The translations under genes were made by a program, and so were the position numbers. This document shows positions 5,964 to 54,700 of a stretch of DNA of 64,000 nt, piece after piece. The DNA comes from a virus. Taxonomy: Duplodnaviria > Heunggongvirae > Uroviricota > Caudoviricetes. Where the stretch lies: positions 1-64,000 of the IMG/VR virus record IMGVR_UViG_3300046791_000283. One strand, given 5' to 3'. Positions within the stretch are counted from its first letter, which is position 1. Each line of letters opens with the position of its first letter. Under the pieces are notes generated by a model that saw only the letters and a program-made list of their open reading frames with translations, was not told where the DNA came from and did no database searches.

Positions 5964-6645
5964 CGATAATTTGTCTTAACCCCCAGACCTCAGCGGGAAC
6001 CTGTAACTCTGCAAATACATTTTCAGGGCTTATTGGGAAGAGCTTGCGGTCCGCATGCTCTTTTAAATCTCCGGTTTCAGCCCAAAACTTTTTATAGAGG
6101 ATAGTACGCTTTTCCGTACGCTCCTCCATTAGTTTCATAAGACCGGCCTCAACCTTTCCATTACGGAGAGCTTCGACACGGTTTCTACTTAGGAGGTCAA
6201 TTTCTTCTTCAATGAATACAATTTCATTCCAGGTGTAATTCTTACGGGCCTTCAAAAAATCGAGTATCCACTCGATCACCTGTGGCTCTTTGAAGTCCAT
6301 TATGCTTACTATGTAGTCGGAAAAATTTCCATTGGGATCACGATCGTAACCGGCTTCTTTTGCTGCTGCTTCCTTACGTAATCGAACGTCCTCAGGGTAT
6401 TCGTGAATTAGGTCGGATTCAGGATCGTACATGAATACGATGTACTTCACCACCTTAGCCTGTTCGATTGGATCGTACATCTGATAGGTTCTGCCGACCG
6501 GCAAATCCCTCAGATCCGTAATTCCCTTGGGTATGGAATTGAAATACCGCTTCAGACCAGGAAAGGCCTCATATAGGCCTTTGAGGTCTGAAACAGATAT
6601 CTTGTGTACCGGGATCGGTAGTTTACTAAATCGTTCTTTGATCAT
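5923..6645 (-). CDS. hypothetical protein, candidate small terminase subunit by position
   Basis: 240-aa ORF directly upstream of TerL and overlapping it. Confidence 0.5.
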   Translation of the reverse strand: MIKERFSKLPIPVHKISVSDLKGLYEAFPGLKRYFNSIPKGITDLRDLPVGRTYQMYDPIEQAKVVKYIVFMYDPESDLIHEYPEDVRLRKEAAAKEAGYDRDPNGNFSDYIVSIMDFKEPQVIEWILDFLKARKNYTWNEIVFIEEEIDLLSRNRVEALRNGKVEAGLMKLMEERTEKRTILYKKFWAETGDLKEHADRKLFPISPENVFAELQVPAEVWGLRQIIDVSKTAGVQEEAP

Positions 6646-7013
6646 AGATCCGCAAATATGTCGGATGCACGCACAAGGTGGTAAATCTTACCCTCATGCT
6701 CTTTACCATCAAGTTCCCATAGCATTGCCTGTCCGGCAAAATATGCTACGGTTTGATTCAGTTTGAGTTGGTAAATTTTAAGAAAGCTATTCTCTGCATC
6801 TGCACCCGTACCAATGGATACAACTATTCCCTTGGCATACGGCTCTTTGGCATCCAACGGTTTGTGGATATTCTTGTCCACTTTTTTGTCCGCTGGAATA
6901 TGTTCAATAAGTACGCGATCATCGTAGAAGATAACCGGAACGAGAGAACGACCATCGAGTATTTCGGTACCGTTTATCCCGGTAACCTTGACTGATTCCT
7001 TTTGGTGTCTCAT
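6642..7013 (-). CDS. hypothetical protein
   Basis: 123-aa ORF coupled to its neighbours by 4-nt overlaps. Confidence 0.5.
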   Translation of the reverse strand: MRHQKESVKVTGINGTEILDGRSLVPVIFYDDRVLIEHIPADKKVDKNIHKPLDAKEPYAKGIVVSIGTGADAENSFLKIYQLKLNQTVAYFAGQAMLWELDGKEHEGKIYHLVRASDIFADL

Positions 7014-8213: not shown

Positions 8214-8396
8214 TTAAACCTCCTTGGTCTCCAGGCTCATGGCCCTGAGAACCGCTGTGTCACTCCGTATGGCCCCAAGCTTCTTTCTAAGCCTTATTCC
8301 AGCGGATTTATTCCCATGGTTAAAATGCTTACGAGCGTCTGATTCCAAAGATTCCAGAGTCTCACGCATTTGCTGAATCAGTTTTTCGTGCTCCAT
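8214..8396 (-). CDS. small basic helical protein, possible nucleic-acid binding
   Basis: 60 aa with a K/R-rich helix (KSAGIRLRKKLGAIR). Confidence 0.4.
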   Translation of the reverse strand: MEHEKLIQQMRETLESLESDARKHFNHGNKSAGIRLRKKLGAIRSDTAVLRAMSLETKEV

Positions 8397-9396
8397 CGGA
8401 TTTATGTGGATTATAGCCAGAGATATAACGCTGTCTCATCTTATAGAAGTGGAACCCCTCGAATTCAATAACAGTATCCAGTAGCGGACGAAAGTACACA
8501 TACGCACCCTCACGGATATCGCACCGATCTCCCTTCAACGGACTACCAATGTGACGCACCCAGCCAGCCAAATACTTCTTACCTGGTGTGGACTTCACCA
8601 CAACCCATTGATCTTTTGGTTTCATAACCGGCCGACCCTTCTCCATAAGTGGTATTCCGTTGACCGTTTCGGGAGTCGGAATGGAGATATCCTCCCACGA
8701 TTCCATATCGGGTTCAACGAACACGTAGGATCCGATCATTACTATCTTCTTCATGTATATGCTTTCCTTTTTATTCATATACATTTTAAGTAATGGCTTC
8801 TCCTGGTCCTCATCGGTTTCTGGTGGTAAAGCATTGGTAAATTCAACCAATTCCTTTTCATCAGCCCAACAGAATGCTGGCATTAATTTATTGATCGGAA
8901 TGTATCGCACCGCTGCATAGATGAGTTCGTATTTTACACGGAAGTATGCTTGCATAAAATATTTTCCCTCATCCAAACCCTTTTGAATTTGCTCATGCGT
9001 TAATTCATCGCGGTTCACTCCATTGCCATCGCGGTCCTCAAGTCTTGAGTACATGTAATACGAGTTGTACGCCTCCTCGTTCATATCTGGCAATAAACAG
9101 TTGTGGTGGAAATACACCTTATCACCGGTGTTAACTTCCATCTCAATATCATCGGCTGTTTTCCATTTGAACGGTGGCATATTACCCGCATAACCAGGTA
9201 ATCCGAAGGTATCACTGGCAATTGGAACCCGGGGTAGAATGCGTGGTACGCTGACCACAATACCCCAGCAGCGGACGTGTCGTGCTGGATCAAAGGTTAC
9301 GTTTACAAGCAATTTTGCAGCATTCGTACCCTTGCCAACCGTCTCATTGAAGATGTCAGTAACCTTAACTACAACGAATTCTTTGAACAATTCCAT
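8362..9396 (-). CDS. hypothetical protein, first gene of the minus-strand operon
   Basis: 344-aa ORF. Confidence 0.6.
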   Translation of the reverse strand: MELFKEFVVVKVTDIFNETVGKGTNAAKLLVNVTFDPARHVRCWGIVVSVPRILPRVPIASDTFGLPGYAGNMPPFKWKTADDIEMEVNTGDKVYFHHNCLLPDMNEEAYNSYYMYSRLEDRDGNGVNRDELTHEQIQKGLDEGKYFMQAYFRVKYELIYAAVRYIPINKLMPAFCWADEKELVEFTNALPPETDEDQEKPLLKMYMNKKESIYMKKIVMIGSYVFVEPDMESWEDISIPTPETVNGIPLMEKGRPVMKPKDQWVVVKSTPGKKYLAGWVRHIGSPLKGDRCDIREGAYVYFRPLLDTVIEFEGFHFYKMRQRYISGYNPHKSDGARKTDSANA

Positions 9397-9836: not shown

Positions 9837-9920
9837 AAATATTGGAAGGGGCTGGATGCCTACCGGAAAATCATAGCAAGTGGTTGTTATTTTTTCTCTT
9901 AGCCCGGTCTCTTCCAACAT

Positions 9921-10061
9921 GGGGATGTAGCTCAGTTGGTAGAGCGTAAGTTTGTGCCCGGTCCTGGTCAACCGGCTTTTGCTGATAGAACCAATTTTAC
10001 GTCAAGGTAAAATGAAGATGAGACAAACTTAAGGTCGGGGGTTCGAAGCCTTCCATCTCCA
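9921..10061 (+). tRNA. tRNA-like gene with a roughly 68-nt insertion in the anticodon loop; anticodon ambiguous
   Basis: Acceptor GGGGATG/CATCTCC; D arm GCTC-AGTTGGTA-GAGC; anticodon stem TAAGT...ACTTA separated by 75 nt; variable loop AGGTC; T arm GGGGG-TTCGAAG-CCTTC; discriminator A; insert folds into two hairpins (CCGGT..ACCGG and TTTTAC..GTAAAA). Confidence 0.6.
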
Positions 10062-10084
10062 CGATAAGTTTTAACCCTTATGCA

Positions 10085-11719
10085 ATGGTAAAGCAGATTC
10101 AATTGGCCAAGGGCTATGCCCTTCCTGTTTCTCAGTACGCAACTCAAGGAAACGCTATTCTCGGAATAAGAGAATCCGGCAAAAGTTACACGGCTATGAA
10201 GGTAGCTGAGCAACTTATGGAGGCCGGTATACCAATTATAGCCTTTGACCCGGTTGGAATCTGGAGATTTTTAAAAGTTCCTGCGAATGCTAACGGTAAG
10301 GGTTACCCAGTAGTAGTGGCGGGTGGCAATGAACCTGATATCCCAATTACAGTAAAGACCGCTCCCGATATTATAAGGGCCGCAATGAAGGAGGGGGTTA
10401 GTTTGGTTATCGATCTATACTGTATGGAGCTTTCAGCTAAATCGGTTTGGAGAAAAATAGTGCAGGATGCTATAAATATTCTCATGTATGAGAATAAATC
10501 GTATGGACCCCGCCATATTTTTCTCGAAGAGGCAGCGGAGTTTATTCCACAACGTTTAGGCCCCGCACACGGACTTGTGTACGCTGAGATAGAGAAGCTT
10601 GCACGTATGGGTCGTAATGCCAGCCTTGGTTATACACTGGTTAATCAACGGGCCGAGGAGGTTAATAAAGCCATTCTGGAAATATGCGCACTCTCAATGC
10701 TGCATAAACAAGTTGGAAAGAACTCCATGCTTAGCCTGAAAAAATGGTTCGATGTATTACACATTGAATCAACGGATAATGTTATGAAGTCACTTGCTGG
10801 TTTAGAAAAAGGTGAGTGCTGGATAGTTGGAGAGACCGCACAACCCACACGGATCAAGGTTCTACCGAGAACGTCTTATCATCCCAATCCAAGCAGTCCG
10901 ATTGATATGCCATCTCAAATGACTAAGGCCGTAGATCCAGGAAAGTTCATTCAAAAAATGCAAAAGCATTTGAATAAAAATGAAGAGAAGCCAACGGTAA
11001 AAGAAAAAGTGTTTGGTAAATCTCAAGACATTTTTGGTGTTGAGAAGATGAAGGAAACAATTAAGTCGCAATCACTTCGTATCGACACGTTAACAAGGTT
11101 GAATACTGAATTACTTAAGGATAATGTAAAATACAGAGATAAACTTTCTAAGATAAAAGCACTTACGGATCCACTACCAGAAATCACTGTGGCATCAAAC
11201 GGCCCGCTGTATCCAAGATTTTCTCCACCAACATCCTCAGTAATCAGCGTTACCTCGAAGTCTGGAGAGAAGCGAATTCTCAATGTTATTGCCATGCACC
11301 ACCCGAAGGCGGTGAATAAGACCAGAGTAGCCACACTGGCAAACCTTAGCCCAACCAGTGGAAGTTTTGGTACGTACATCGCTACTTTAAAAAGAGAAGG
11401 GATGATTGTTGTAACCGGATCTGTTTTCAATATCACCACCCGAGGCCTAGCATACAACGGAACGCCTGAACAACTTCCAGAGGGTAAAGATCTTCTGGAG
11501 ATGTGGTGTGCTAATATTGGTGCGGGTTCAGGGGCATCGCGAATACTCCGATATCTGTATGAACGGAATGATTATATAGGTAAGGGTGAAGTGGCTGAGA
11601 ACGTTGGATTGAGTTCAACCTCCGGAAGCTTCGGCACTTACATCGCAACATTAAAACGTAACGGTCTTATCATTGTGACCGGATCTGCCATGAAAATATC
11701 AGACGACTTTCTAAATTAA
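10085..11719 (+). CDS. P-loop NTPase with two tandem C-terminal repeat (wHTH-like) domains; possible replication initiator or DNA-translocating ATPase
   Basis: Walker A GIRESGKSYT; Walker B IFLEEAAEF; about 27-aa repeat S(P/S)TSGSFGTYIATLKR(E/N)G(M/L)I(V/I)VTGS present twice. Confidence 0.7.
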   Translation: MVKQIQLAKGYALPVSQYATQGNAILGIRESGKSYTAMKVAEQLMEAGIPIIAFDPVGIWRFLKVPANANGKGYPVVVAGGNEPDIPITVKTAPDIIRAAMKEGVSLVIDLYCMELSAKSVWRKIVQDAINILMYENKSYGPRHIFLEEAAEFIPQRLGPAHGLVYAEIEKLARMGRNASLGYTLVNQRAEEVNKAILEICALSMLHKQVGKNSMLSLKKWFDVLHIESTDNVMKSLAGLEKGECWIVGETAQPTRIKVLPRTSYHPNPSSPIDMPSQMTKAVDPGKFIQKMQKHLNKNEEKPTVKEKVFGKSQDIFGVEKMKETIKSQSLRIDTLTRLNTELLKDNVKYRDKLSKIKALTDPLPEITVASNGPLYPRFSPPTSSVISVTSKSGEKRILNVIAMHHPKAVNKTRVATLANLSPTSGSFGTYIATLKREGMIVVTGSVFNITTRGLAYNGTPEQLPEGKDLLEMWCANIGAGSGASRILRYLYERNDYIGKGEVAENVGLSSTSGSFGTYIATLKRNGLIIVTGSAMKISDDFLN

Positions 11720-14096: not shown

Positions 14097-15713
14097 ATGT
14101 CGAAGAAAATTACTTTTGATTCCGCTGCGCATGCAAAACTTAAAATCGGTGTGGATGCCTTGGCTGATGCGGTCAGTGTGACCCTTGGCCCCAAGGGGCG
14201 AAATGTTATCCTGTGTAAGGACTATGGAAGTCCAGCGATCACCAAGGATGGTGTGTCGGTCGCCCGTGAGGTCTTTCTGGAGGATCCGATGGAGAACGCT
14301 GGTGCCCAGCTGGTGAAGGAGGTTGCGAGTAAGACGGCTGAAGCCGCTGGAGATGGAACCACGACTGCAACCGTCCTGGCGCAAGCGATTTATGCGCATG
14401 GATTGAAGAACGTTGCTGCGGGTGCAAATCCAATGGACTTGAAACGTGGAATTGATAAAGCTGTTCTGTTGGTTACGGAGAGTCTAGCCAAGCAGTCTAA
14501 GAAAATAAAATCATCCGAACAGATCCGCCAGGTTGCAACGATCTCATCGAACAACGATGTGGAAATCGGAGGATTGATCGCGGAGGGAATGAAGAGAGTT
14601 GGTATGGATGGGGTGATCACCGTAGAAGACAGCAAGGGTATTGAATCCGAGATCACCGTGGTCGAGGGCATGCGATTTGATCGCGGATATCTTAGCCCGC
14701 ACTTCGTAACCAACACTGAGCGCATGGAGGTCGAAATGACCAACCCCTACGTACTTCTCACGGATAAAAAAATTGCATCGATGCGTGAGATGCTTCCGAT
14801 AATCCAACAAGTGGCGGACACTGGAAATCATCCGCTGTTATTCATTAGTCCCAATGTAGAGGGTGAGGCCCTCGCGACACTTGTTGTCAATAAGATGCGT
14901 GGTGCCCTGCATGTAGCGGCTGTGAAGACTCCGGGATTTGGTGATCGCGTAATGACCGATGCGCTTGAGGATCTCGCGGTGATCACAGGTGGCAAGGTAA
15001 TCAGTGAGATCATTGGATTGAAAATAGAAGAATGCAGACTCGAACACCTGGGTCGGGCAGAGAAAATCATCATCGATAATCAGACCACCACGATCGTCAA
15101 GGGTGCGGGCAAGTCAATCGATGTGAAGGAGCGGGTCGCCCAGGTGAAACACCAGATTGAAAACAGCGAGATTCCCTATGAGAAGGAGCGATTAAAGGAA
15201 CGTATTGCCAAGCTCACCGGTGGAGTGGCGATCTTGTATGTCGGTGCATCGACTGAAGTTGAGTTGAAGGAGAAGAAGGATAGGATTGATGATGCTTTGC
15301 ATGCAACACGGGCTGCAGTCCAGGAGGGCGTGGTACCTGGTGGTGGGGTCGCGTACATCCGCGCGATCGATTCATTGAAATCCGTTGCAGTGGATAATCA
15401 GGATCAGGAAACCGGTGTGAATATTATCCGCCTGGCTCTTGAGGCTCCATTGCGTGTAATCGCTAAAAACTCTGGGGCAGAGGCCTCGGTGGTTGTGGAT
15501 AAGGTACGGTCGCTGAAGAAAACTTTCGGCTACAATGCACGCGATGATAAGTACGAAGAATTCTTTGCGGCCGGCATCATCGATCCTACGAAGGTATCAC
15601 GACTTGCGTTGGAGAACGCGGCTTCGATCGCTGGACTCCTTCTGACTACCGATGTTATTATCAGTGAGATTCCAAAGGATAAACCCGAAGCCAATGGACC
15701 GGTTGCAAGATAA
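14097..15713 (+). CDS. groL: chaperonin GroEL (Cpn60)
   Basis: [39 protein letters not shown], and full 538-aa collinearity with GroEL. Confidence 0.9.
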
Positions 15714-28605: not shown

Positions 28606-30465
28606 ATGGCAAAGAAAAATAGTCACATTACCGTAACAGATCAATTCTGTGGCGCTGGAGGATCTTCGCAAGGAGTCCGTCTGGTAGCACGGGAGAAGAA
28701 ACTCAATACCGGCCTTGAAGTCAAGTTGGCTATGAACCATTGGCCGCTCGCCATTGAAACCCACAATACCAATTTTCCAGATACCGATCACGTGTGCACA
28801 GATATTTCAGCCTGTGATCCTCGGAGGTATCACAGTACAGATATTCTAATCACCTCACCCGAATGTACCGTGCACAGCCCAGCTGGTGGAGGACAGGCGA
28901 AAAAGAAAATGTATGGCAATCAACTCCATACCTCAGGGAAACTTATGTCCGAGATAGCCGAGGAGCGATCCCGTGCTACCATGTGGGATGTTTGCCGTTT
29001 CACTGAGTATCACCGTTACAATATTATTATCGTGGAAAACGTAGTCGAGGCCCGAACCAAATGGGTTCTATTCGACACCTGGTTAATGGCGATGACAAAC
29101 CTCGGCTATGACCACGAAATAAAATACATAAACAGCATGCACGCACATCCGACACCGCAATCACGCGACCGGATGTACTGCGTATTCTGGAAGAAAGGAA
29201 ACAAGAAACCAAATTTGAATCATACCCCTGTGGCTCCGTGCCACAAGTGTTTGAAAACCGTTGAGGCCTACCAGTGGTTTAAACCCCGTGGTAAGCGTAC
29301 CAACCTTCCAGAGAATCATGGGAAATACCGGACTCAGTATTTGTTTAAATGTCCGGACTGTAATTCCGTAGTGGAACCGTACTTCTATGCTGCCTTCAAT
29401 TGTATCGACTGGTCTAAGCCAGGCACACGGATTGGAGATCGTAAGAAACCGCTGAGCCCTAAAACCGAAGTCCGTTGTCAATACGGAGTCGATAAGTTTT
29501 GGGATGAGCCGAGCTTCATTAATGTGAAGTTCTCTTCAGGCGTGGACTTCCGGGTGAAGCCTGTAGCGGGAGAACCTCTGACTACACAGCCGGGAGATGC
29601 TGCAGTTGGGATATTGAATCCGATGATCATTTCATCCAGATACATTCAAGGAATAGGGAACCGCGTGAAGTCAAGTGAACAGGCCTTACCAGTGCAAGTG
29701 ACAGACGGGCGGGAGTCCGTCCTTACGCCTCCTCCGCTGATCATTGGTACGCAGTACAGCAAAGAAGCCAGAGGGGTTGAAAAGAGTTCGCTCGATCCAC
29801 TCAGGGTTCAAACAACGATCACTGACAACGCATTGGTTACACCTCCGCTAATCCTTGACGGTGGATGGAGTGAAGCCAAACCCCGTGTGGACGATGCCTC
29901 GAAGGAACCGATATCAGTACAGGACACTGGGCAGACCAAGGGTGTGGTGATGCCAATGCTGATTAAAAACTATAGTGGGAAGCACAATCCAATCGCTCCA
30001 TCGGAGCAACCTATGGCTTCTGTTACCGCTCAGGATCACCACGGACTTTTGAACGTGCCATTGGTAGTGAATAACCATGGCCAGAGTATGTCAAAGCCAT
30101 CAGCGAATGAGTTGCCATCGCAGACAACGCATCCGAAGTCCGGTATACTTACGGCTGAAAGTTTCAATAGCTTTATATCGTATTTCTACGGTGGATCGAA
30201 TGTAGCCAGCCATATAACCGAAGCCATGCGCACAGTGAGTACAAAGGAGCGGGCCATGCTAATCAATCAGCCGTACGTGAAACCAAGGCTTGAGGATTGT
30301 TTCTATCGGATGCTACTGCCAAATGAGATTCAACTCGGGATGGCCTTCGATGCGGATTACGTAGTCCTGGGGGACTCGAAGCAAAAGGTTAAGCAGTTGG
30401 GTAACGCGGTTACACCTCCGGTAATGAAGTTTTTAGTAGAACGTTGTGTCGAATCACTTTTATAA
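28606..30465 (+). CDS. DNA (cytosine-5)-methyltransferase with large target-recognition insert
   Basis: Motif I FCGAGGSSQG, PC-like TSPECT, ENV (IIVENVVEA), motif X GNAVTPPV. Confidence 0.85.
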   Translation: MAKKNSHITVTDQFCGAGGSSQGVRLVAREKKLNTGLEVKLAMNHWPLAIETHNTNFPDTDHVCTDISACDPRRYHSTDILITSPECTVHSPAGGGQAKKKMYGNQLHTSGKLMSEIAEERSRATMWDVCRFTEYHRYNIIIVENVVEARTKWVLFDTWLMAMTNLGYDHEIKYINSMHAHPTPQSRDRMYCVFWKKGNKKPNLNHTPVAPCHKCLKTVEAYQWFKPRGKRTNLPENHGKYRTQYLFKCPDCNSVVEPYFYAAFNCIDWSKPGTRIGDRKKPLSPKTEVRCQYGVDKFWDEPSFINVKFSSGVDFRVKPVAGEPLTTQPGDAAVGILNPMIISSRYIQGIGNRVKSSEQALPVQVTDGRESVLTPPPLIIGTQYSKEARGVEKSSLDPLRVQTTITDNALVTPPLILDGGWSEAKPRVDDASKEPISVQDTGQTKGVVMPMLIKNYSGKHNPIAPSEQPMASVTAQDHHGLLNVPLVVNNHGQSMSKPSANELPSQTTHPKSGILTAESFNSFISYFYGGSNVASHITEAMRTVSTKERAMLINQPYVKPRLEDCFYRMLLPNEIQLGMAFDADYVVLGDSKQKVKQLGNAVTPPVMKFLVERCVESLL

Positions 30466-32350: not shown

Positions 32351-34363
32351 ATGACATTTCAACTCAATAGATTCATAGTATCCGATGTGTTCGATCCAAC
32401 GACCGGACTGGAAAGTATTCCCGATGGAATAGCGGACTGCATCGTAACCAGCCCACCCTATTGGGGTAAGCGTGACTACCGAACCGGAATCTGGTTGAAC
32501 GGTGATCCAAAGTGTGATCACATGCCATCCTCGACTCCAAATGAACGCGGGCTGGCCTCCTCCACACTCAGTGGAGGAAAGAAGTCAACGGGTCACCGCC
32601 AGGAGGGCTTCAAAGGCAGTTGTCCCCGCTGCGGAGCCATCCGGATTGATAAACAACTCGGACTCGAAAAGACTCCAGAGGAATTCATTCAGCGGATGGT
32701 TATCGTATTCCGAGAATGCAAACGAATTCTAAAACCACATGGAACCCTGTGGATCAATATCGGTGATACCTACTGGTCGGGTAAGGGTAAGTCTGGAGCC
32801 GCATGGGATAAGTATAATAATTCTGGTCACATAAATTACAAAGGACAATCGTACGCGGGCTATGGTGAGACCAGACCACAGGACGGTAAGCATCCGATTA
32901 TAAAACCGAAGGATCTCGTAGGAATTCCTTGGAAATTAGCCGAAGCCCTCAGGGCACCATTCTATACTGGTAGAATAACAAATGAACTCGATAGAGTTTG
33001 GATGGCGGCAATGATTGATGGAGAGGGTTGTTTTTTTATTCATAAACGGAAAGCAGGAACCTCATCATATTCAAAATTTAAAAAAGTTGATGGGACTGAG
33101 AATACTTATTTGCGTACAAAAGACACGTATAGTGCAGGGCTAGAAATAACCAATACAGATGAAGCAATCATAAGGCGTATAAAAGATGTTACAGGTTTAG
33201 GCACCATCACAATCCAAACCCCATCACAAAATACTAGACGTGTACAAACCCTATACAGATGGCGTGTTTCTCCAAATGAAGCAAAAAGAATTGCTCAAGA
33301 AACTTATCCTTATCTTATAGGTAAACAACATCAAGCAAGACTTATATTTAATTGCCAGTCAAGTGGTGACTTAGCCTCGCAAGCCCATCAAGCAATTTTA
33401 GATTTACATAATGGAATTAATCCAAAAATTGATTTTCCAGCACCACCTTCTCTATTTGAACCAGGTTGGTATTTAAGGTCTGAGATTATATGGGCAAAAC
33501 GCAATCCGATGCCGGAAAGTGCACAGGATCGCTGCACAAGTTCACATGAACATATTTTCATGCTGTCTAAATCAAAGTCCTATTACTTCGATCGCGTTGC
33601 CATAGCCGAGGAGGTCAAGGACTCCACAGTGAAGCGAACCGCTCAGGATGTAGAGAATCAGAAGGGAAGCGATCGGGCCTACGAAGGCAAGCGACACAAT
33701 GGGCCGATGAAAGCCGTGGTGTCAAAGCACATGAACGTACCGAAGGGATGGGATACTGGTTCAGGTAGTCACGGGAATTTTCACTCCGAAGGAAGGCGTA
33801 AGGATTATGATCATCGCGGAGGTGGAAAGGATAACAAGTTAAGTAAGCATAATGGTAATCTGGACGAGGATGGTAATCTGATCGGAGACGGTATTGCTAA
33901 TAAGCGCGATGTCTGGTCGATGAGTACTCAACCCTATAAGGGCGATCACTTTGCCACATTCCCAGAGGAACTTCCAAGGAATTGTATTCTGGCCGGTACA
34001 TCGGCTAAAGGAAATTGTCCGCACTGTGGTAAGCCTTGGGTACGAATCAGTAAAAAAGAGTTTGTTACCCGCGATGCTACTGAAAGAGAACCAGAGAGAG
34101 ATGATTTAATAAAGCACGGATTACCCAGAGGAGAAAATATTGTGCGGACTATCGGCTGGAAGCCATCGTGTAAATGCAATAAACCCGGAGAACTCACACG
34201 GCCAGTTGTATTCGATCCCTTTGGAGGCACTGGCACAACACCCGTTGTAGCCGATCAACTCGGTAGGGACTGGTTGGCCATGGAGCTTTCGCAGGATTCG
34301 ACCAATCAGGCACACCGGAAATTAAGAAACAAATTAGGTCCACTGTTAACTCAAAACTTATAA
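32351..34363 (+). CDS. beta-class DNA methyltransferase (N6-adenine or N4-cytosine) carrying an in-frame LAGLIDADG-like insertion
   Basis: Motif IV TSPPY near the N-terminus and motif I FDPFGGTGTT near the C-terminus; EIIWAKRNPMPES and HEHIFMLSKS are typical of beta-class MTases. Confidence 0.8.
   Translation: MTFQLNRFIVSDVFDPTTGLESIPDGIADCIVTSPPYWGKRDYRTGIWLNGDPKCDHMPSSTPNERGLASSTLSGGKKSTGHRQEGFKGSCPRCGAIRIDKQLGLEKTPEEFIQRMVIVFRECKRILKPHGTLWINIGDTYWSGKGKSGAAWDKYNNSGHINYKGQSYAGYGETRPQDGKHPIIKPKDLVGIPWKLAEALRAPFYTGRITNELDRVWMAAMIDGEGCFFIHKRKAGTSSYSKFKKVDGTENTYLRTKDTYSAGLEITNTDEAIIRRIKDVTGLGTITIQTPSQNTRRVQTLYRWRVSPNEAKRIAQETYPYLIGKQHQARLIFNCQSSGDLASQAHQAILDLHNGINPKIDFPAPPSLFEPGWYLRSEIIWAKRNPMPESAQDRCTSSHEHIFMLSKSKSYYFDRVAIAEEVKDSTVKRTAQDVENQKGSDRAYEGKRHNGPMKAVVSKHMNVPKGWDTGSGSHGNFHSEGRRKDYDHRGGGKDNKLSKHNGNLDEDGNLIGDGIANKRDVWSMSTQPYKGDHFATFPEELPRNCILAGTSAKGNCPHCGKPWVRISKKEFVTRDATEREPERDDLIKHGLPRGENIVRTIGWKPSCKCNKPGELTRPVVFDPFGGTGTTPVVADQLGRDWLAMELSQDSTNQAHRKLRNKLGPLLTQNL
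32990..33480 (+). other. LAGLIDADG-like domain inserted in-frame in the methyltransferase; AT-rich patch
   Basis: WMAAMIDGEGCFFIH resembles LAGLIDADG; segment sits between the conserved GIPWKLAEALRA and GWYLRSEIIW blocks; local AT content clearly above flanks. Confidence 0.5.
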
Positions 34364-34365
34364 CT

Positions 34366-35658
34366 ATGAGCTACGATAATTTCAAATGCTGGTTTCGGAT
34401 CCGGGAGAAAAAATCCCCGGATATCGAAGTCGTTGTTACAACCGCTATTAAAAAGAAAACCGGTTCCTCTAAAGTAGAGGGCATGCGTACCCTTGGTATG
34501 GCAATCCCCGAGGGAGCCCGTTGGGGAGGAAAGAAAGATTGGGTAATCGGTATCGATGATGAGAGCCTCCAGATTAACCAGGCGCTCAGCACGATCAAAA
34601 AAGGTCTGCACACCCGTTACCTTAAAATGAAGAATGACAAACAGATGGAGCCCATACCGGTTGATGTCATTCGGGCTTACTTCGATGAAACCTCCACTGT
34701 GTCCAAAGGACTCATCGAACTCATCGATGAGTACCTGTTAGCAAAACGATTGGCTATTAACACAGCCAAGGTCTATCAGTTGAATATTCGAAGTCTATTG
34801 ACTCGATTTATTCCAACTGAATTCCAAACACCCGATGTAAGCATTGAACGCATCGATACTCCGTTCCTATACCGGCTGGAGATATTCATCCGCAAGTCAC
34901 CGAAAAGTAAAAGTGGAAAGCCGTTCGCTGAGAGTACGATTCGTGAATACATTGGTAAGGTAAAGGCGATTGTAGAGTACGCGATCAGCGTGGGATATGT
35001 ACGTGAACGATTAACCGAACAGTATCAGGCGAAGAAGTTTGGTAAGATTGAAAACCAATCGTTTGAACGTCTTGTGAGTCCGGATGATTTATTAAAGATT
35101 GAAACAATCGAGGTCCCCGCACCAGGCAATCCTATGAAACAGAAATACCATAGGTACGTTGTCAAGAAATGGCGTATGCGATTACTCTTTCTATTTCAAC
35201 GCTGGACCGGACTCTCTTATGCCGATCTGGTTGCCATCGGTAGTAATATCCGTAATCACATTCAAACCGATATGTCCGGGAAGAAAAGCATTGTGTATCA
35301 AAGGCAGAAGAGTGGAGTCATGGCGATCATCCCATTGTTTCCACAGACCGAAGCCCTCCTGGAGAAACTCGAATACAATATCTATCCGATGGAAACCTAT
35401 GAGGCTACGTACGGGACGGTCAGAAGTATGTTCAAGTGGTATGGATTCCCCTACTGGAAAGAAGTTGGTACGCACACCGGCCGACACGTTTTCGGAATTG
35501 AAATGCTTACGATGGGATTTAGTATGGAGGCTGTATCCCGGATGATGGGTCACCAGAATATTGAGGAGACTCAGAAGGTTTATGCGAGAATCGATATGAC
35601 TAAAATCAATGTTGATTTGGATCGGATTAATCTGCGAATCAAAATCACAGGTAGTTAA
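34366..35658 (+). CDS. int: tyrosine recombinase / integrase (Bacteroidota-type, long N-terminal arm domain)
   Basis: GTHTGRHVF (R..HxxR) and HQNIEETQKVYARI (catalytic Tyr). Confidence 0.85.
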   Translation: MSYDNFKCWFRIREKKSPDIEVVVTTAIKKKTGSSKVEGMRTLGMAIPEGARWGGKKDWVIGIDDESLQINQALSTIKKGLHTRYLKMKNDKQMEPIPVDVIRAYFDETSTVSKGLIELIDEYLLAKRLAINTAKVYQLNIRSLLTRFIPTEFQTPDVSIERIDTPFLYRLEIFIRKSPKSKSGKPFAESTIREYIGKVKAIVEYAISVGYVRERLTEQYQAKKFGKIENQSFERLVSPDDLLKIETIEVPAPGNPMKQKYHRYVVKKWRMRLLFLFQRWTGLSYADLVAIGSNIRNHIQTDMSGKKSIVYQRQKSGVMAIIPLFPQTEALLEKLEYNIYPMETYEATYGTVRSMFKWYGFPYWKEVGTHTGRHVFGIEMLTMGFSMEAVSRMMGHQNIEETQKVYARIDMTKINVDLDRINLRIKITGS

Positions 35659-37700: not shown

Positions 37701-38747
37701 ATGAGCACAAAGATCGAATGGACACATCGTCCAGGAACCAAGGGTGAGACGTGGAACCCCACAACTGGCTGCGATAAGGTTAGCCAGGGATGTAAATTCT
37801 GTTACGCTGAGGGTATGCACAAGCGCCTACGCGCTATGGGTATGAAGAAATACGATCATCCGTTTCTCGGTGAGGTTCGTACGCATGAGGACACATTGCT
37901 TATCCCATTGAAATGGACAAAGCCTCGTACAATCTTTGTCAACTCAATGTCCGACCTATTCCATGCGGATGTACCGTTTGATTTCATTGATAAGGTGTTC
38001 GCTATTATGTCGATGAGTTCACGACACACCTACATCATTGCGACTAAACGACCAGAAAGAGCCGCTGAGTACTTCGCATCTAAAACCCGCAAGTGGTCTG
38101 TTTGGCAAGAAGCCGTGATCTTAGAGGGTAAGAGTGATCACGAATTCAATTGGCCACTACCAAACGTCTGGATGCTAACCAGTGTGGAGGATCAGAAAAC
38201 AGCAGCACAGCGTATTCCATACCTTCTACAATGCGATGCTGTAGTCAAAGGAATTTCAGCCGAACCCCTATTGGGGCCAATCGATCTAACCAACTTGGAC
38301 TGTGATGGTGCAGGTCACCCGGACTACTGTCAAATCAATGCACTTACAGGAGTACAGACTGATATGGCCAGGCCGTGTCGCGATGTACCTAAACTGAATT
38401 GGGTTATCGCTGGTGGGGAGAGTGGAATCAAATCCGGGGTCCGTCCACCGAATCCTGAATGGTTTGCATCTCTACGTGATCAGTGTGCCTCAGCTGGTGT
38501 GGCTTTCTTCTTTAAGCAGTGGGGCCAATGGGCTCCAGTAGAGGTGGCATCGTTGTTAACATCTCCGGAGAATGATCTACTAAAAGTATTTGATTGGAGT
38601 TTCGTTTTAGCAGATGGACGCTATACAAAAACTCCTCAGCTATCAGACTTAGAAAATAAGATTTTTAGTGTAATGTATCGAGTTGGTAAGCACAACTCAG
38701 GAAATGAATTAGAAGGAGAACAACATCTTCAATATCCACAGATATGA
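37701..38747 (+). CDS. phage Gp37/Gp68-family protein (DUF5131)
   Basis: N-terminal IEWTHRPGTKGETWNPTTGCDKVSQGCKFCYAE matches the family signature. Confidence 0.6.
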   Translation: MSTKIEWTHRPGTKGETWNPTTGCDKVSQGCKFCYAEGMHKRLRAMGMKKYDHPFLGEVRTHEDTLLIPLKWTKPRTIFVNSMSDLFHADVPFDFIDKVFAIMSMSSRHTYIIATKRPERAAEYFASKTRKWSVWQEAVILEGKSDHEFNWPLPNVWMLTSVEDQKTAAQRIPYLLQCDAVVKGISAEPLLGPIDLTNLDCDGAGHPDYCQINALTGVQTDMARPCRDVPKLNWVIAGGESGIKSGVRPPNPEWFASLRDQCASAGVAFFFKQWGQWAPVEVASLLTSPENDLLKVFDWSFVLADGRYTKTPQLSDLENKIFSVMYRVGKHNSGNELEGEQHLQYPQI

Positions 38748-48755: not shown

Positions 48756-51700
48756 TTAAAGATACACTATTGCTTCAAGTTCGCGTATACTCCGGAATAT
48801 CTGATTTCTAGTCTGGATGGCCTCGGCTTCCTGCTCTCCTTCAACCTGATCACTATAATCCTGCATCAAAGCCTCAATTTCACCTATGGAATCGTTTATT
48901 TCGTATAAACGATCGGCCTCCTCCTGTGAATATTCTATCCGCTCCTCCTCAAGGGCTTTAATTTTCTGCTGATTTTCCTTCTTAATTTCATAGTAGAATT
49001 GCACCTGGCGAGAGGCCTCAAAGTACAATTCCTTGGTGAAGATATCGCCAAAGCCATACGCACCCTCCTTACCAGTCACATATTTAACCGCCCGACCAAA
49101 CGTCCCCTCCAGGAAGTGATCTATTTTCTTTGGGCTCCATCCCAGCTTTTCACCCATGAATACCGCTACCGTACTTGTGTACTTGTTGTACCGTAGCTCT
49201 GGAGGCAAGGAAAGATCTTTCTGCGACTCTATTGGACGTACGGTCGGATAGGTCTTTTGACCCGTGGCCACCTCCACCGATGGCTTAACCGCCTGTGGTA
49301 GGTAGGAGAATAGCATCTGATATCCTGCGAACGGATTGGCCTGGGTTGGTAAGAATGATAAACTCGCTTGCCCATACTCACTCCATTTGTAATCGGTTTG
49401 ACCAGCATTCTCAATCAACATCATATTCAACATACTACTTAACCAAGCAAGTTGATCTGGAATGCGAATTTGAACTAGTCTCTTCTTACTGTATGGGTTC
49501 GGAAGAAACAAATACTTACTCATGGTCTCCGGAGGGATGGCTTTGATCAATTGCTTTTGCTCATCATCATCATCCATACCCAATAGATATAATACCGATC
49601 CAACCGATGCCGCTGTAATCGAAAACACTGCAACAGCAAACCGAATCCTACCCTCCTTGGTCTGTAGTGCATTACGATTCTGAATCAACACCTGTAACGA
49701 TGAATTGAAGTATGGTAAACTCCTAACATACGATTGTCCAATTTTACCACCGAGCCTGCCCGTATGATGGAATGGTGCCGATACCCTACCGGCTTCTTCA
49801 AGCGCTACAGCCTGGTGCTTCCCAGCCTTACGCGCACGAATGTATTCGGTTCCCCTGGTGAATATTTCCGAAGCATTTCCCGGAGTGCTCATAACCTTTG
49901 CAATAAAATCAAAGAACCCAGCCAGGCGGTCGGTCCACTGTTTCTTATTACCCAGAATAACATCGTTAAGATTTTGTGTCGATGCAACATCGGCACTCAA
50001 GAACGTCTGCGATGTACCGGCCAAGAACATATACTCCTTCAGGTAAGCCGCTTCAACCGATCCCTTACTCAGGATGGCCTTACCCATTTCAATCGATGAG
50101 GTTACGAAGGGAAACATTCCATTGCGTGTGTTAACCGATGCGATAGCCTGGTCAAGGAAAATGTTGTTAGCAAAGAATTGCCAGAATAGTCCGGTCGTAC
50201 CGGCACGGAATACCTGGGCCATGGAGACCCCGACCTTTTCAATTAAGTGGTGATTGTGATACGAATAGTTCTCATCCAGCACGGCTTTCATTTGAGCGTT
50301 AGCCAAAATGGGCACGCGCTTGCCATCCTTACGAGCCATAATGATATTCGGATCCTTCTCCTGTGGATAACGATTCCTTGGATCCTCCGACACCTCCAAT
50401 GGTACAACCTGGAATACTGGTGCCAGGTCTTTCTCATTCGCCTCCACCATGCCCAATATCTTATTATACACCATCTGCTTCATCCCTTTGTTAAGCATTT
50501 CGGTGTGTGCAACCATGGAACTCATCAACGGACTGATAATGGCCTTCTCACTACCACGTCTGGACATAAACTGGCTAGCCTTTGTTTTACCTGATTGACG
50601 AATCTTTGGTATATCGTTCTCCCCAACGATTTCATCGTAGAAAGCACGCTTCAATGGAGTGTATCCCTTCTTAGCTGATAGTCGACTGTACGCTGTATCA
50701 TCGATCATTTGAACCAATGGGTTCACAGCAAAGTCAAGATTCTCCCGAGTAAGCTTATCGTACATCTTCACCTCTTCTTCAAATAAACGATTACCCTCAG
50801 TGAATGCCTCCTCGGATTCCTTCTCACTCACACCTTCCTTTTTAAGCAATGCCTCCATATCCGCGATATCCTTCTTTAATTGTTCGGACTGTATCCGCGC
50901 AAATGTTTCGGCTTGCTGCTGCGAGATACTCATGGACTTCATTATGTCGGCCACATAGGTTGGAGCCTGTACTTTAGCCAGTTCGGCTTCAAGTCGGTGC
51001 TGCTCATCGTAATCGTATTTGATTCGTCTGCCATACAGGTAAGCATCGAACTCATCGAGCATACCACGTTTCTCCAATCCGTTTACTATGGTGTAAAAAT
51101 TGAAATCGTGCTTCTTGAAGAACTCACCCGTAGGGCTCATGGAATAAAACTTCTGAGCTTTCGATGAAATGTTCTTCTGGGCCATCTGCAAATAATTATT
51201 CGATAGCCTTATAAATATCGATACGTCTTCCTGTGTGAAGTGAGTCCCATGGATCTTCGCAAGTTTCTCATACGGATAAAGAGAATCGAACAATGTTTTT
51301 GTGATCTGATCGGACTTACTTAAGAAGGGTGCGGTTTCCCCGAGATCCTCTGCGCTCTCATTCACAATCCGTGCACTCATCTTAGCCAATGGATCTAATG
51401 ATTGATAGGTCTGAATGACCTTATCCACATCCTTCATAAACTCCTCTACCTGCGGAACATAATACTTTCCTCCGGGTTCAAGGAATTCCTTAACCAATTC
51501 TGGGAAATCCTTCCGGATCTCTGCCGGTTGTTCCAGGTACTTCTGAACCAATGTCGCATACCCCTCAACCATTCTTCGATATAGATCGTGACCCGGCTGA
51601 GCTTTTGGATAATACTTCAGATACAAATTAGTTAGCTGCTGACGGAACGGATCCGCAGCCTGAGTATTCTTTATAAAATCACTCACCACACTATTCTGCT

Positions 51701-54700
51701 TATCCAACGCATGTGTAAGCTCGTGCATTACCACGCTGAGTGAATTCAACCCTTTAACGCGCACGTTAGTTGATCCACGATAGAATACACCGAGGTTTCC
51801 ACGACCGGTTTTATCCTGACCCAGTGTGGCATCCGGATTATACTTCTTAGCCAATTCTATAGCCTTCCGATAGAGTTTAATCGGGATCGGTTGTGGTTCG
51901 ATGGCTCTGCCTTCGAATTCACCGATAGGTGCCGCACCTTTTGAAGCATCTGAAGTCTGAGCAAAGAAATCAGGTTCCTTGATCTCTTCCTCGGGTACCG
52001 CTGCCGGTGGGGTCTCATCCGATGGAATCTTTTCTTCCGGGGTCCTACGGACCGCTCCAACTGGAGTGGTATCTGTAGCTGTCTCAGTTTTCTTACCAAT
52101 CGGTGCTACCGGAGTGAATAGTCCGAATTGTTGTTTATCACCTTCTTTGGCTCTTTGAATATCAGTAGTGAGTTTCACCAACTGATTGTTAAGATTTTTT
52201 AATTGCCCTTCGATCTCCTGGAGACGCGATGGCTGCGGGGGATCCTTCTTATTGAACCTCTCCTTCTCAAGTGCTTGGATTTCCTTCTTAACCTGGTCGT
52301 ACTCATCTACCATCTGGGACTCATTAAATCCACGGGTCGTACGGTTCTCAAGGTTTAAAGGCTGATTTGGATCAGCCAAGAAAGAAACGTTATTAACAAC
52401 ACTGTCAAGGCGATCAATAAAATCCGCCCGGGTCGTAAGTTTCTTACCTGTTCCATTGACTAAATATTCATGTAGTTCGTTTTCCTGTGAATCGGTCAGC
52501 TGGGGAAAACGCTTACGCGCTTCTCCAATAAATTCTCCGACCTGCATTACTCGGCCCTGACCCTCTGTGGTTTCAGACTTCTGCACCGCCTTAATCATAT
52601 CCCGGGTCTGTCCACCCTTCTTCAAATAACTAAATAGGACCTCACGTTTAGTTGTGCTGAGCTTCTTTTTCACTTCCGATTCACTCATACCCTCCGATCT
52701 ACGCTTGGCTATAAGCTTAGCGCGATCCAAAACAGTTTCTTGGGTTGCAGCCTTATTCGATCGTTCGGTTGCAAATGCGATCGCATCGGCCTCACTCTTA
52801 CTCGAAGCGTCTACAGCATCAATGGTTTTGAAGTTTTCAAACCCCTGTGCACGCATCTTCTCCATGGCCGCCTCAGGTATTTCCCCAGCCTCCAATTTCT
52901 TCTGTAGTTCACGGAAGGCCTCGGTACGTGAGTGACCGGCTAACACATAGGTTTTATCGTTCTTAGGATCCGTCCAAGTGCGTACGGGATCGAACTCGGT
53001 TACATCGAATTTACCCTCCATAACCGCGTCAACGATCTTCTGCACGCTTTCCTTCGAATAGTCCTCCTCACGGGCTTGGAATCGCTCCAAATCAACGTTG
53101 ATATCCTCTACGGGTTTAGCCTCAACCCTTACCCTTGCTTTCGGTGCGACCTTAGCTTGCTCTGTTTTACTTTCTCCGGGAGGGCCTTGAGATTCTGTTG
53201 ATACTCCTTCGCCCACCGGTGCGCTAGTTCCGGCTTCTTCAGAAACAGGAACCTCTGCTGGGATTTGCTCTTGAATGGCATCTTCTACTGGTTTAGTTTC
53301 CGGTGTTACCGCTGCCGGTGGTGCCTGTATCTCCTCCGCCTTCGGTAAAACCTCGTCTTCAATAAATTTCTTAATTTCTTCCTTTGGCCTGGTGTCACCA
53401 TACTTCGTAGCAACATCGGCCACACTGTCTACAAAGTTTTCATACGATTGCTTATCCTCAGGCACGCTGGTTTTCTTCAATCGGTTAAGAAAATTAGCTT
53501 TTGATAAAGCCGTTGCTCCCTGGCCAGCTGCCGATATCCCGGCCCCACCAATAGCTCCAGCGATACCCTCATCGATCGCTTGTAACCAATCGATATTCTG
53601 AACAGCCTCAGTGGTACCGAGTCCGGTCATTTTACCAACAGCGGTTTGCTGCAGCGCTGACTGTGTGGATTCAGTTAACAATTCAACCCCACCGGCTTCA
53701 CTTGACTTTCTTATCCAGCTGAGTGCGCGATCACGTAGATCCCTACGGAATCCCTTTATACCTATAGAACCAGCCACCTTACCCGCACCCACACTATCCA
53801 GTGCCCCCTGAATGATACCAAAGTTCCGTGCGATTACCGGTTCATCCATATCCTTCCTGATAACCTCCTCGGGAGTCATTTTATTTTGATTCGCGATCTC
53901 CGTTACACCATCGAGATAGTTATTACCAACCTCCTGGAGATACGATGTGGTTCCCCTACTATAAATCGATGGAATGATTTGAGCCGCTCCCTGTCCAACG
54001 GATGAGAATACAAAATCAATTACATCCAGTGGCTTCTTAATTTGCGAAATGCTTTGAATTAGATTCTTATCATTAGCAATTAACATGGGGACTCCGTTCA
54101 TGCCCGGTACCATGTGAATAGGAGCCTTTCTCCATTCCTGGGCCCAGTCGAATACGGCTACCCTGGCATTATCAACATGCTCGTTAACCGTCTCTTTAGC
54201 ACCTGGTATCTGCGAAACAGCCTTCTTAAACTGACTGACCACACCGGGTTTATACCATGGTCTATTTTCGTCCTCAGGCTTGATTTTAAGATCAGCTAAG
54301 ATATTTGATATGGTTGCACCGGTGGAGGCGGGCAATTCGAAGCCAAGTGTTTTCGTAACGGCCTTACCAAAGGAACCGAATATACGATCCGTGATATCCT
54401 TATTATCCTGAATAGCTTTCGTCCGCATAATCTGATCATACGATTGCCCAGTCAATAATTTGGATAGATCATCCGTATCAACATCTATATCCATTGGAAT
54501 TAATACCCCTTGATCAACAAGTTTTGCTTTATCGGGATTATTTTGCTTGAAAACTTCATTCCTGATTTCTTGAATCTTCTTATCATCCAATCCAAGTGTT
54601 TCAAATAATTTTTCCTGACGAGCACTATTGAATTCAAGATATTGATCACGCTGATCTTTAGCTAGAGTTTGAAGAGATTGTATCTGTTTATACTTCTTAT

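Follow-up and report, generated by a model that had tools for sequence, protein, structure and literature searches.

A tRNA-shaped phage gene of alanine type with a 68-nucleotide insert in its anticodon loop

The 64-kb stretch of tailed-phage DNA analyzed here (the window) carries a tRNA-shaped gene of 141 nt in which every stem of the cloverleaf is intact and the anticodon loop is enlarged to 75 nt by an insert. The existence of such a gene, with an insert in its anticodon loop, is confirmed (Table 1). As to its nature, we favor, with a probability of about one half, the view that it specifies an unspliced, non-decoding, alanine-type tRNA-like RNA, which would be either a relic or a processing/stability element.

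Table 1. Coordinates of the tRNA-like gene, its parts and its surroundings in the window, and of the insert-bearing tRNA-like genes of families A and B
Feature	Position	Strand	Sequence or description	Basis or remark
Whole tRNA-like gene	9921-10061	+	141 nt, alanine-type body, enlarged anticodon loop	Rfam RF00005; stems hand-checked
5' half	9921-9951	+	GGGGATG, U8 A9, GCTC-AGTTGGTA-GAGC, G26, TAAGT	
3' half	10027-10061	+	ACTTA, variable loop AGGTC, GGGGG-TTCGAAG-CCTTC, CATCTCC, A73	
Acceptor stem	9921-9927 with 10054-10060		GGGGATG with CATCTCC	7/7 paired, including G3:T70
D arm			GCTC / AGTTGGTA / GAGC	Stem 4/4; G18 G19 in loop
Anticodon stem	9947-9951 with 10027-10031		TAAGT with ACTTA	5/5 paired; strands 75 nt apart
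T arm			GGGGG / TTCGAAG / CCTTC	Stem 5/5
Discriminator	10061		A (A73)	CCA not encoded
75-nt loop	9952-10026	+	7 nominal loop positions plus 68-nt insert	ARAGORN puts the insert at 9955-10022
Extended anticodon helix, 5' strand	9947-9955	+	TAAGTTTGT	MFE and centroid folds
Extended anticodon helix, 3' strand	10023-10031	+	ACAAACTTA	MFE and centroid folds
Hairpin 1	9958-9975	+	CCGGT-CCTGGTCA-ACCGG, then CTTTTGCT	Weakly terminator-like
Hairpin 2	9995-10012	+	TTTTAC-GTCAAG-GTAAAA	
Upstream leader	9837-9920	+	ATTGG.AG..GCC.ACCGGA, AAGTGGTTGTT, CGGTC..TCC..ACAT	Partly conserved with relative L127
Trailer, 23 nt	10062-10084	+	CAC.A.AAGTTTTAACCC	Conserved with L127; runs into the start codon of the next gene
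HerA/DUF87-like ATPase gene	10085-11719	+	First gene of the rightward block	Synteny anchor
Family A loci			L162 6878-6997, L175, L197, L199, L209, L218	Bacteroides
Family A loci			L188 3923-4041, L219	Flavobacterium
Family A loci, further			L206; L165 1602-1719 and 1725-1843; L204; L182	
Family B loci			L176 109-249, L177 7081-7221, L180 4232-4371, L186 3796-3912, L208 2447-2571	
Family B loci, further			L168, L173, L183, L194, L041	

Over its full length the element scores 51.2 bits with the Rfam tRNA model (RF00005), whose gathering score is 29 (E = 4.7e-08 over 64 kb); the model places a 71-nt insertion in the anticodon loop, and no other Rfam hit in the 64-kb window reaches its gathering score. 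Each of the 21 stem pairs is formed, leaving none of the 42 stem nucleotides unpaired, and the nucleotides of the tertiary contacts are present (U8, A14, G15:C48, G18 G19, T54 T55 C56, and A58). With a score above threshold and these nucleotides in place, the element belongs to the tRNA family RF00005. A tRNA that functions as a decoder has, once mature, a 7-nt anticodon loop with U33 and a purine at position 37; the loop encoded by this gene measures 75 nt. A preliminary description of this DNA had drawn the same cloverleaf and placed an insert of about 68 nt within the anticodon loop. The Rfam score and the hand-checked stems bear out the cloverleaf at all the coordinates then given, and the 75-nt loop between TAAGT and ACTTA bears out the insert. 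The ARAGORN check suggested there has a divided outcome. Default settings report no tRNA at the element, and the intron search returns tRNA-Val(GAC) with a 68-nt intron at 34/35. The latter call is not relied on because this mode is too permissive: on 120 control loci chosen for paired tRNA motifs it produces 173 intron-bearing calls, many of them across two adjacent tRNAs. The reality of the element rests instead on the Rfam score and the stems.

Judging from identity elements and best matches, the body of the molecule is of alanine type. The acceptor stem combines G1-C72, G2-C71, G3:U70, and G4-C69 with A73, which is the alanine identity set. Alanyl-tRNA synthetase (AlaRS) takes G3:U70 and A73 as its determinants and does not read the anticodon. 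Among 763 distinct tRNAs called by ARAGORN in viral control loci, G3:U70 is found in 29 of 32 alanine tRNAs versus 8 of the 731 others, and the combination of GGGG, G3:U70, and A73 is found in 17/32 versus 0/731. The first 26 nt are identical to a control-locus viral tRNA-Ala(UGC). The exon-joined sequence was also used as a blastn query and was given a Val anticodon on purpose; 19 of its 22 full-length matches in phage records (query 1-73) are annotated as tRNA-Ala, and the remaining three are unannotated. The Val, Asp, or His identity envisaged in the preliminary description is therefore at odds with both the identity set and the best matches. The junctions that leave a 7-nt loop give only UUGACAA (Val, GAC), UUGUCAA (Asp, GUC), and UUGUGAA (His, GUG). 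No junction provides an Ala anticodon (NGC) in a 7-nt loop. UGC does occur directly after UUG in the 5' flank, where it is usable only in an 8-nt loop, UUG-UGC-AA; alanine loops in the controls are mostly UUUGCAA. Hence, of the features of a tRNA-Ala, G3:U70 and A73 are present and an Ala anticodon is absent. The element shares with canonical bacterial and phage tRNA-Ala the G1-G4/C69-C72 pairs with G3:U70, A73, the D arm, the variable loop, and the T arm, but differs in lacking the 7-nt loop and Ala anticodon, in its AT-rich anticodon stem, and in the 68-nt insert. That stem has 2 G/C among its 10 nucleotides versus a mean of 6.3 in the alanine controls, and IMG/VR viral contigs and JGI metagenomes yielded no uninterrupted tRNA having this stem.

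The MFE and centroid folds extend the anticodon stem by four pairs into a continuous 9-bp helix (TAAGTTTGT/ACAAACTTA), which is followed by a 5x3 internal loop. The two small hairpins pointed out in the preliminary description are present within the insert, but the insert folds no better than dinucleotide shuffles. Taken alone, its 68 nt reach -13.0 kcal/mol (z = -0.11), indicating no excess structure, and the whole arm folds at z = -1.5. Hairpin 1 together with CTTTTGCT (9958-9984) scores as a weak terminator-like site; two such sites occur in the scanned region versus about 0.9 expected in shuffles, which is not significant. A small frame, ATG AAG ATG AGA CAA ACT TAA (10012-10032), ends within the 3' strand of the anticodon stem and is not above chance.

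In the collections searched the insert has no copy, and it matches no known kind of intron. It is not repeated elsewhere in the 64-kb window. An Rfam search of the insert had been proposed as a check; over 9850-10130 at E <= 10 it returns no family for the insert, with only tRNA overlapping the element and one other match lying downstream at 10103-10121. Exact and gapped DNA patterns of the exons and junctions have no match in viral contigs or metagenomes, an 18-mer of the insert has only two unrelated, GC-rich chance matches in viral contigs, and a pattern of both hairpin stems has 0 matches in 185,579 genomes. These collection scans are all exact-pattern searches, and the window's own contig is absent from the collections scanned. 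Comparison of the anticodon arm with phage records by blastn yields noise (E >= 3). The insert is known from one sequence.

The window is a tailed-phage genome with portal, large terminase, virion proteins, amidase, GroEL/GroES, DnaB, methyltransferases, and an integrase-like gene, and 93% of it is coding in the standard code. The terminase is nearest to those of Flavobacterium and Cellulophaga phages, at only 26% identity, and an attempt to establish synteny found terminase relatives that are only 25-28% identical. GroEL/GroES, DnaB, and the terminase affinity point to a virus that is bacterial in type. The phage encodes a GroES-like (Cpn10) protein at 6642-7013 (-) and a GroEL chaperonin at 14097-15713 (+), and a 344-aa ORF at 8362-9396 shows a weak Cpn10 match. 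The DNA methyltransferase at 32351-34363 (+) contains an HNH endonuclease segment (residues 211-339). A second methyltransferase at 28606-30465 (+) and a DUF5131 protein at 37701-38747 (+) are far longer than the profile regions they match. The extra segments in these three proteins may be inserted mobile domains.

The tRNA-like gene lies just past the point where leftward structural genes give way to rightward ones; there it occupies most of a 248-nt gap and ends 23 nt before the HerA/DUF87-like ATPase gene. Homologues of the encoded protein carry PF01935, and one is named HerA-like. The sole close relative of the locus in the protein collection is marked by a 65% identical HerA-like protein (P0002) on ENA contig L127. 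There, the slot between the conserved leader and trailer holds an uninterrupted tRNA (553-624, +; 63.7 bits), with anticodon CAU, GGG/CCC at the base of the anticodon stem (three G-C pairs), A11:U24, and a 1:72 mismatch; by these features it is of initiator type. The slot is thus occupied by a tRNA-shaped element in each of the two close genomes, yet the element differs in identity, being alanine-type in one and initiator-type in the other. No upstream tRNA is seen in 22 more distant HerA-like loci. Conservation of the leader was judged by eye, the MAFFT alignment being misregistered upstream. The 8-mer GCCCGGTC occurs both in the leader (9902-9909) and at the start of the insert (9956-9963), and CGGTC is also found in the L127 leader; the shared 8-mer is probably due to chance.

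In the explanation that we prefer, the gene would derive from a phage tRNA-Ala whose anticodon loop was replaced by the 75-nt loop with its 68-nt non-intron insert. Positioned 23 nt upstream of the HerA-like gene, it would be transcribed together with the rightward operon. Because the acceptor, D, and T arms and the tertiary nucleotides are intact, RNase P and RNase Z would be expected to excise the RNA and the host to add CCA. This would free from the operon leader a stable RNA, about 141 nt in length, that has a long anticodon arm. Charging by AlaRS is probable, since G3:U70 and A73 are present and the enzyme does not depend on the anticodon. The insert would not be spliced out, and with no anticodon loop the RNA would not decode. 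Its remaining role, if any, might be that of a processing/stability element setting the 5' end of the downstream mRNA, or that of a tRNA scaffold for the insert; otherwise, the gene would be a recently disabled relic. The preliminary description had listed a disrupted tRNA among its options, in agreement with this preference.

Several observations speak for the unspliced reading: the intact cloverleaf, the alanine identity elements, the lack of an Ala anticodon at any 7-nt junction, ordinary valine decoding in GroEL (see below), the absence of any Rfam ribozyme or intron family at E <= 10, the unstructured insert, the absence of a tmRNA or nested tRNA at relaxed thresholds, the absence of splicing enzymes among about 55 ORFs, and the uninterrupted, different tRNA in the L127 slot. 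Bacterial Y RNAs provide a natural precedent for tRNA folds that bear a foreign module and undergo tRNA-like processing (PMC4201824). The perfect stems argue against long neutral decay and fit either residual function or a genuine intron. With no mismatch in any stem, the fold would still be under selection or have been disabled very recently. The role as a processing element rests on two genomes and is set against the 22 more distant HerA-like loci that have no upstream tRNA.

The previously described classes of introns do not accommodate the insert. Group I introns in tRNA genes possess a catalytic core, P3-P9, and typically measure about 200 nt or more. An insert of only 68 nt cannot hold such a core, and RF00028 gives no match, whether at the gathering threshold or at E <= 10. 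The preliminary description rightly judged the insert much too short to be a group I intron; 68 nt is, to our knowledge, far below any self-splicing intron. The tRNAs that harbor group I introns (tRNA-Leu UAA, tRNA-Ile CAU, and the tRNA-Asn and tRNA-Asp of Patescibacteria) resemble the window gene in that a bacterial-type tRNA is interrupted in its anticodon loop, but they differ in the size of the interruption and in the core and Rfam match that the insert lacks; moreover, U(-1)/omega-G and a 7-nt loop are not obtained together at any junction of the element. The bulge-helix-bulge motif of archaeal and eukaryal introns consists of two 3-nt bulges on opposite strands with a 4-bp helix between them and needs a host splicing endonuclease. 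Such introns are comparable in size range, and pairing adjacent to the junctions lengthens the anticodon helix in both cases, but the element has no staggered 3-nt bulges around a 4-bp helix and the virus is bacterial in type. Here, no bulge interrupts the 3' strand where the extended helix meets the stem, and if the register is forced, the 4-bp central helix retains a single Watson-Crick pair. Small self-cleaving ribozymes (hammerhead, twister, pistol, hatchet, and HDV-like) were rejected as well, with only tRNA overlapping the element at E <= 10 in the Rfam search of 9850-10130, as was a tRNA nested inside the insert, none being detected at relaxed thresholds.

It is unlikely, in our estimate, that the insert represents a new class of short tRNA intron. 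Removal of 67-68 nt, whether through an unknown small ribozyme activity or through host or phage enzymes that escaped recognition, would then yield a decoding tRNA, either one with a GAC anticodon and mixed Val/Ala identity or one whose 8-nt loop, UUG-UGC-AA, reads Ala codons. Both exon halves are without flaw, and their loop remnants, UUG...ACAA, would join into a canonical loop (U33, A37, A38), as those of an intron would; at random this would be expected in roughly one case in 8. In the 5' flank UUG is followed directly by UGC, the Ala anticodon met most often, and the four exon-proximal base pairs lengthen the anticodon helix, a trait shared with many intron-containing pre-tRNAs. For many of the phage ORFs no function could be assigned. 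The novel small intron raised in the preliminary description nevertheless finds no backing in a ribozyme match, a bulge-helix-bulge motif, significant structure, a homologue, or a phage splicing enzyme. No RNA ligase, polynucleotide kinase or kinase-phosphatase, or splicing endonuclease is present among about 55 phage ORFs, which include all those of at least 200 aa except the 2185-aa virion protein at 48756-55313.

The decoding behavior of the phage also bears on a spliced product. With a 7-nt loop, such a tRNA would insert Ala at Val, Asp, or His codons, against standard valine decoding. In the GroEL codon table, GTT/GTC stands at invariant Val in 9/12 cases and at Ala never, and a Val-to-Ala codon reassignment is rejected on these grounds. 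The small HerA alignment, too thin to bear on this point, has GTT opposite A twice, V twice, and I twice. Because the phage decodes GTT/GTC as standard Val, an Ala-charged GAC tRNA would cause mistranslation. Slightly less probable again is the fully specified version, a very small new intron class with an unknown remover whose product accepts Ala and carries either GAC, for deliberate Val-to-Ala mistranslation, or the UUG-UGC-AA loop.

The preferred reading leaves room for an active insert, and natural tRNA-like genes with large inserts were encountered in our scans. An earlier gapped scan had returned mostly tandem tRNAs; a bacterial-genome scan for Ala-type halves 65-95 nt apart gave att-like duplications and recurrent tRNA-like genes with large inserts. 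Family A is found in Bacteroides, Flavobacterium, Chryseobacterium, Taishania, and Saprospiraceae. Its tRNA-like genes of 116-125 nt contain, after the D arm and before a short anticodon-like hairpin, a domain of about 45 nt in which a helix with compensatory changes in 7/8 pairs encloses ATTATC...AAGGTCAA and is followed by TTAC. These genes are often situated in tRNA clusters, with a conserved ORF of about 746 aa, devoid of any Pfam domain, downstream and, in one case (L165), RtcB upstream. Family A has no Rfam family and is apparently undescribed. Viral contigs L066 and L089 show a similar GTTACTTC motif and lie outside alignment A3 and covariance model R1.

Family B, from Deinococcus, Gemmatimonadota, Polyangia, and others, carries GGNCCGAAGG and is located immediately upstream of Ro60 (TROVE + vWA) genes; its members are bacterial Y RNAs. 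They have near-identical bodies and differing anticodon-like 7-nt loops (UCA, GUC, UGG, UCU, CUC, and GUG). The Rfam YrlA model gives only below-threshold hits on this family, spanning two tandem copies, as expected from circular permutation. Single Ala-type tRNA-likes with a long helix in place of the anticodon loop were also met (L161 7744-7867, L205 6238-6349, and L192 193-327) and have the same architecture as the window element; the L161 example, from Parcubacteria, falls inside a span matched by a 23S rRNA model. Two viral contigs of 372-497 kb (L153 3194-3331 and L155 2630-2767) contain a normal tRNA-Ala followed by a tRNA-like of about 58 nt that apparently has no anticodon arm.

These families show that tRNA bodies are naturally reused with modules in the region of the anticodon arm, and for this reason we retain, though as a doubtful proposition, the idea that the window gene is a tRNA-scaffolded functional RNA. 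The insert itself would be active, for instance as a protein-binding decoy or small regulatory RNA, and, as in bacterial Y RNAs, the tRNA body would see to its processing and protect it from nucleases. Ponchon and Dardel have reportedly engineered tRNA scaffolds for recombinant RNA in which the loop is replaced by a cargo RNA. These scaffolds resemble the window gene in the intact tRNA body, the anticodon stem that is kept and extended, and the replaced loop, but are an artificial design, whereas the function of the cargo in the window gene is putative. Among natural chimeras, the covariation of 7/8 inserted-helix pairs in family A (Bacteroidota), the similar insert-bearing tRNA-likes on viral contigs L041, L066, and L089, and the position of family B beside Ro60 genes, with the Ro-binding motif G-N-C-G-A-A-G (PMC4201824), all speak for this possibility. 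[quoted passage not shown] 2014, PMC4201824).

Like the Y RNAs YrlA and Yrn1, the window gene joins a tRNA-shaped fold to a non-tRNA module, but its insert is unlike the modules of either family. Model R1 aligns the tRNA part only and skips the domain, so that membership in family A is rejected; alignment z-scores do not exceed 3.9; and G-N-C-G-A-A-N0-1-G is absent from 9921-10061. YrlA has no Rfam match in 9850-10130 at E <= 10, nor window-wide at the gathering score, and no TROVE (Ro60) or RtcB domain was found among the scanned window ORFs. By these comparisons the element belongs to neither family A nor family B. A functional cargo is further disfavored by an insert that is structured no more than shuffles and has no homologue in the collections searched.

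A wholly inert pseudogene, that is, a tRNA-Ala recently broken by insertion or rearrangement and roleless whether transcribed or not, is likewise given a low probability. It would account for the single occurrence, the unstructured insert, and the destroyed anticodon, and the tRNA content of the slot turns over between relatives. Against it stand the absence of any unpaired nucleotide in the stems, the intact tertiary positions, and a phage genome that is 93% coding. In addition, TAAGT/ACTTA is unlike typical alanine stems and has no uninterrupted counterpart in IMG/VR or the JGI metagenomes, which argues against a standard tRNA-Ala simply broken in the recent past.

An attachment-site remnant or a miniature tmRNA-like rescuer is very improbable. 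tRNA anticodon loops are classic integration targets, but each half of the gene occurs once in the window, with no duplicated half-tRNA of the sort seen in L154, L179, and L181, and the integrase-like gene (34366-35658) is 24 kb distant; the attachment-site remnant suggested in the preliminary description is accordingly not borne out. A tRNA-Ala followed by a direct repeat of its 3' part, which is how integration of an element in a tRNA gene usually shows itself and which contrasts with the window gene, was observed in L154, L171, L179, L181, L193, L196, L211, L212, and L214. A tmRNA has pseudoknots, a reading frame for a tag, and a tRNA-like domain that lacks D and anticodon stems. G3:U70 is an identity element of tmRNA too, and the small frame (AUG AAG AUG AGA CAA ACU UAA) could be taken for a tag, but both stems are complete here, ARAGORN detects no tmRNA even when its threshold is relaxed, and the tag-like peptide is without the usual hydrophobic C-terminus.

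The window gene illustrates that isotype is best read from identity elements and not from guessed splice junctions. Should the RNA be spliced, its insert would be a tRNA intron belonging to neither group I nor group II, the first of its kind from a bacterium or phage, and the consequence would be either a minimal splicing chemistry that is new or an alanine tRNA, encoded by the phage, that mistranslates. If the RNA is unspliced, as we favor, the gene, taken with the Ro60-linked Y RNAs and family A, suggests that tRNA bodies fitted with foreign anticodon-arm modules are recurrent among bacteria as well as phages. Such RNAs are missed or misnamed by standard tRNA finders, as here by ARAGORN, which reports nothing in its default mode and a valine tRNA in its intron mode.
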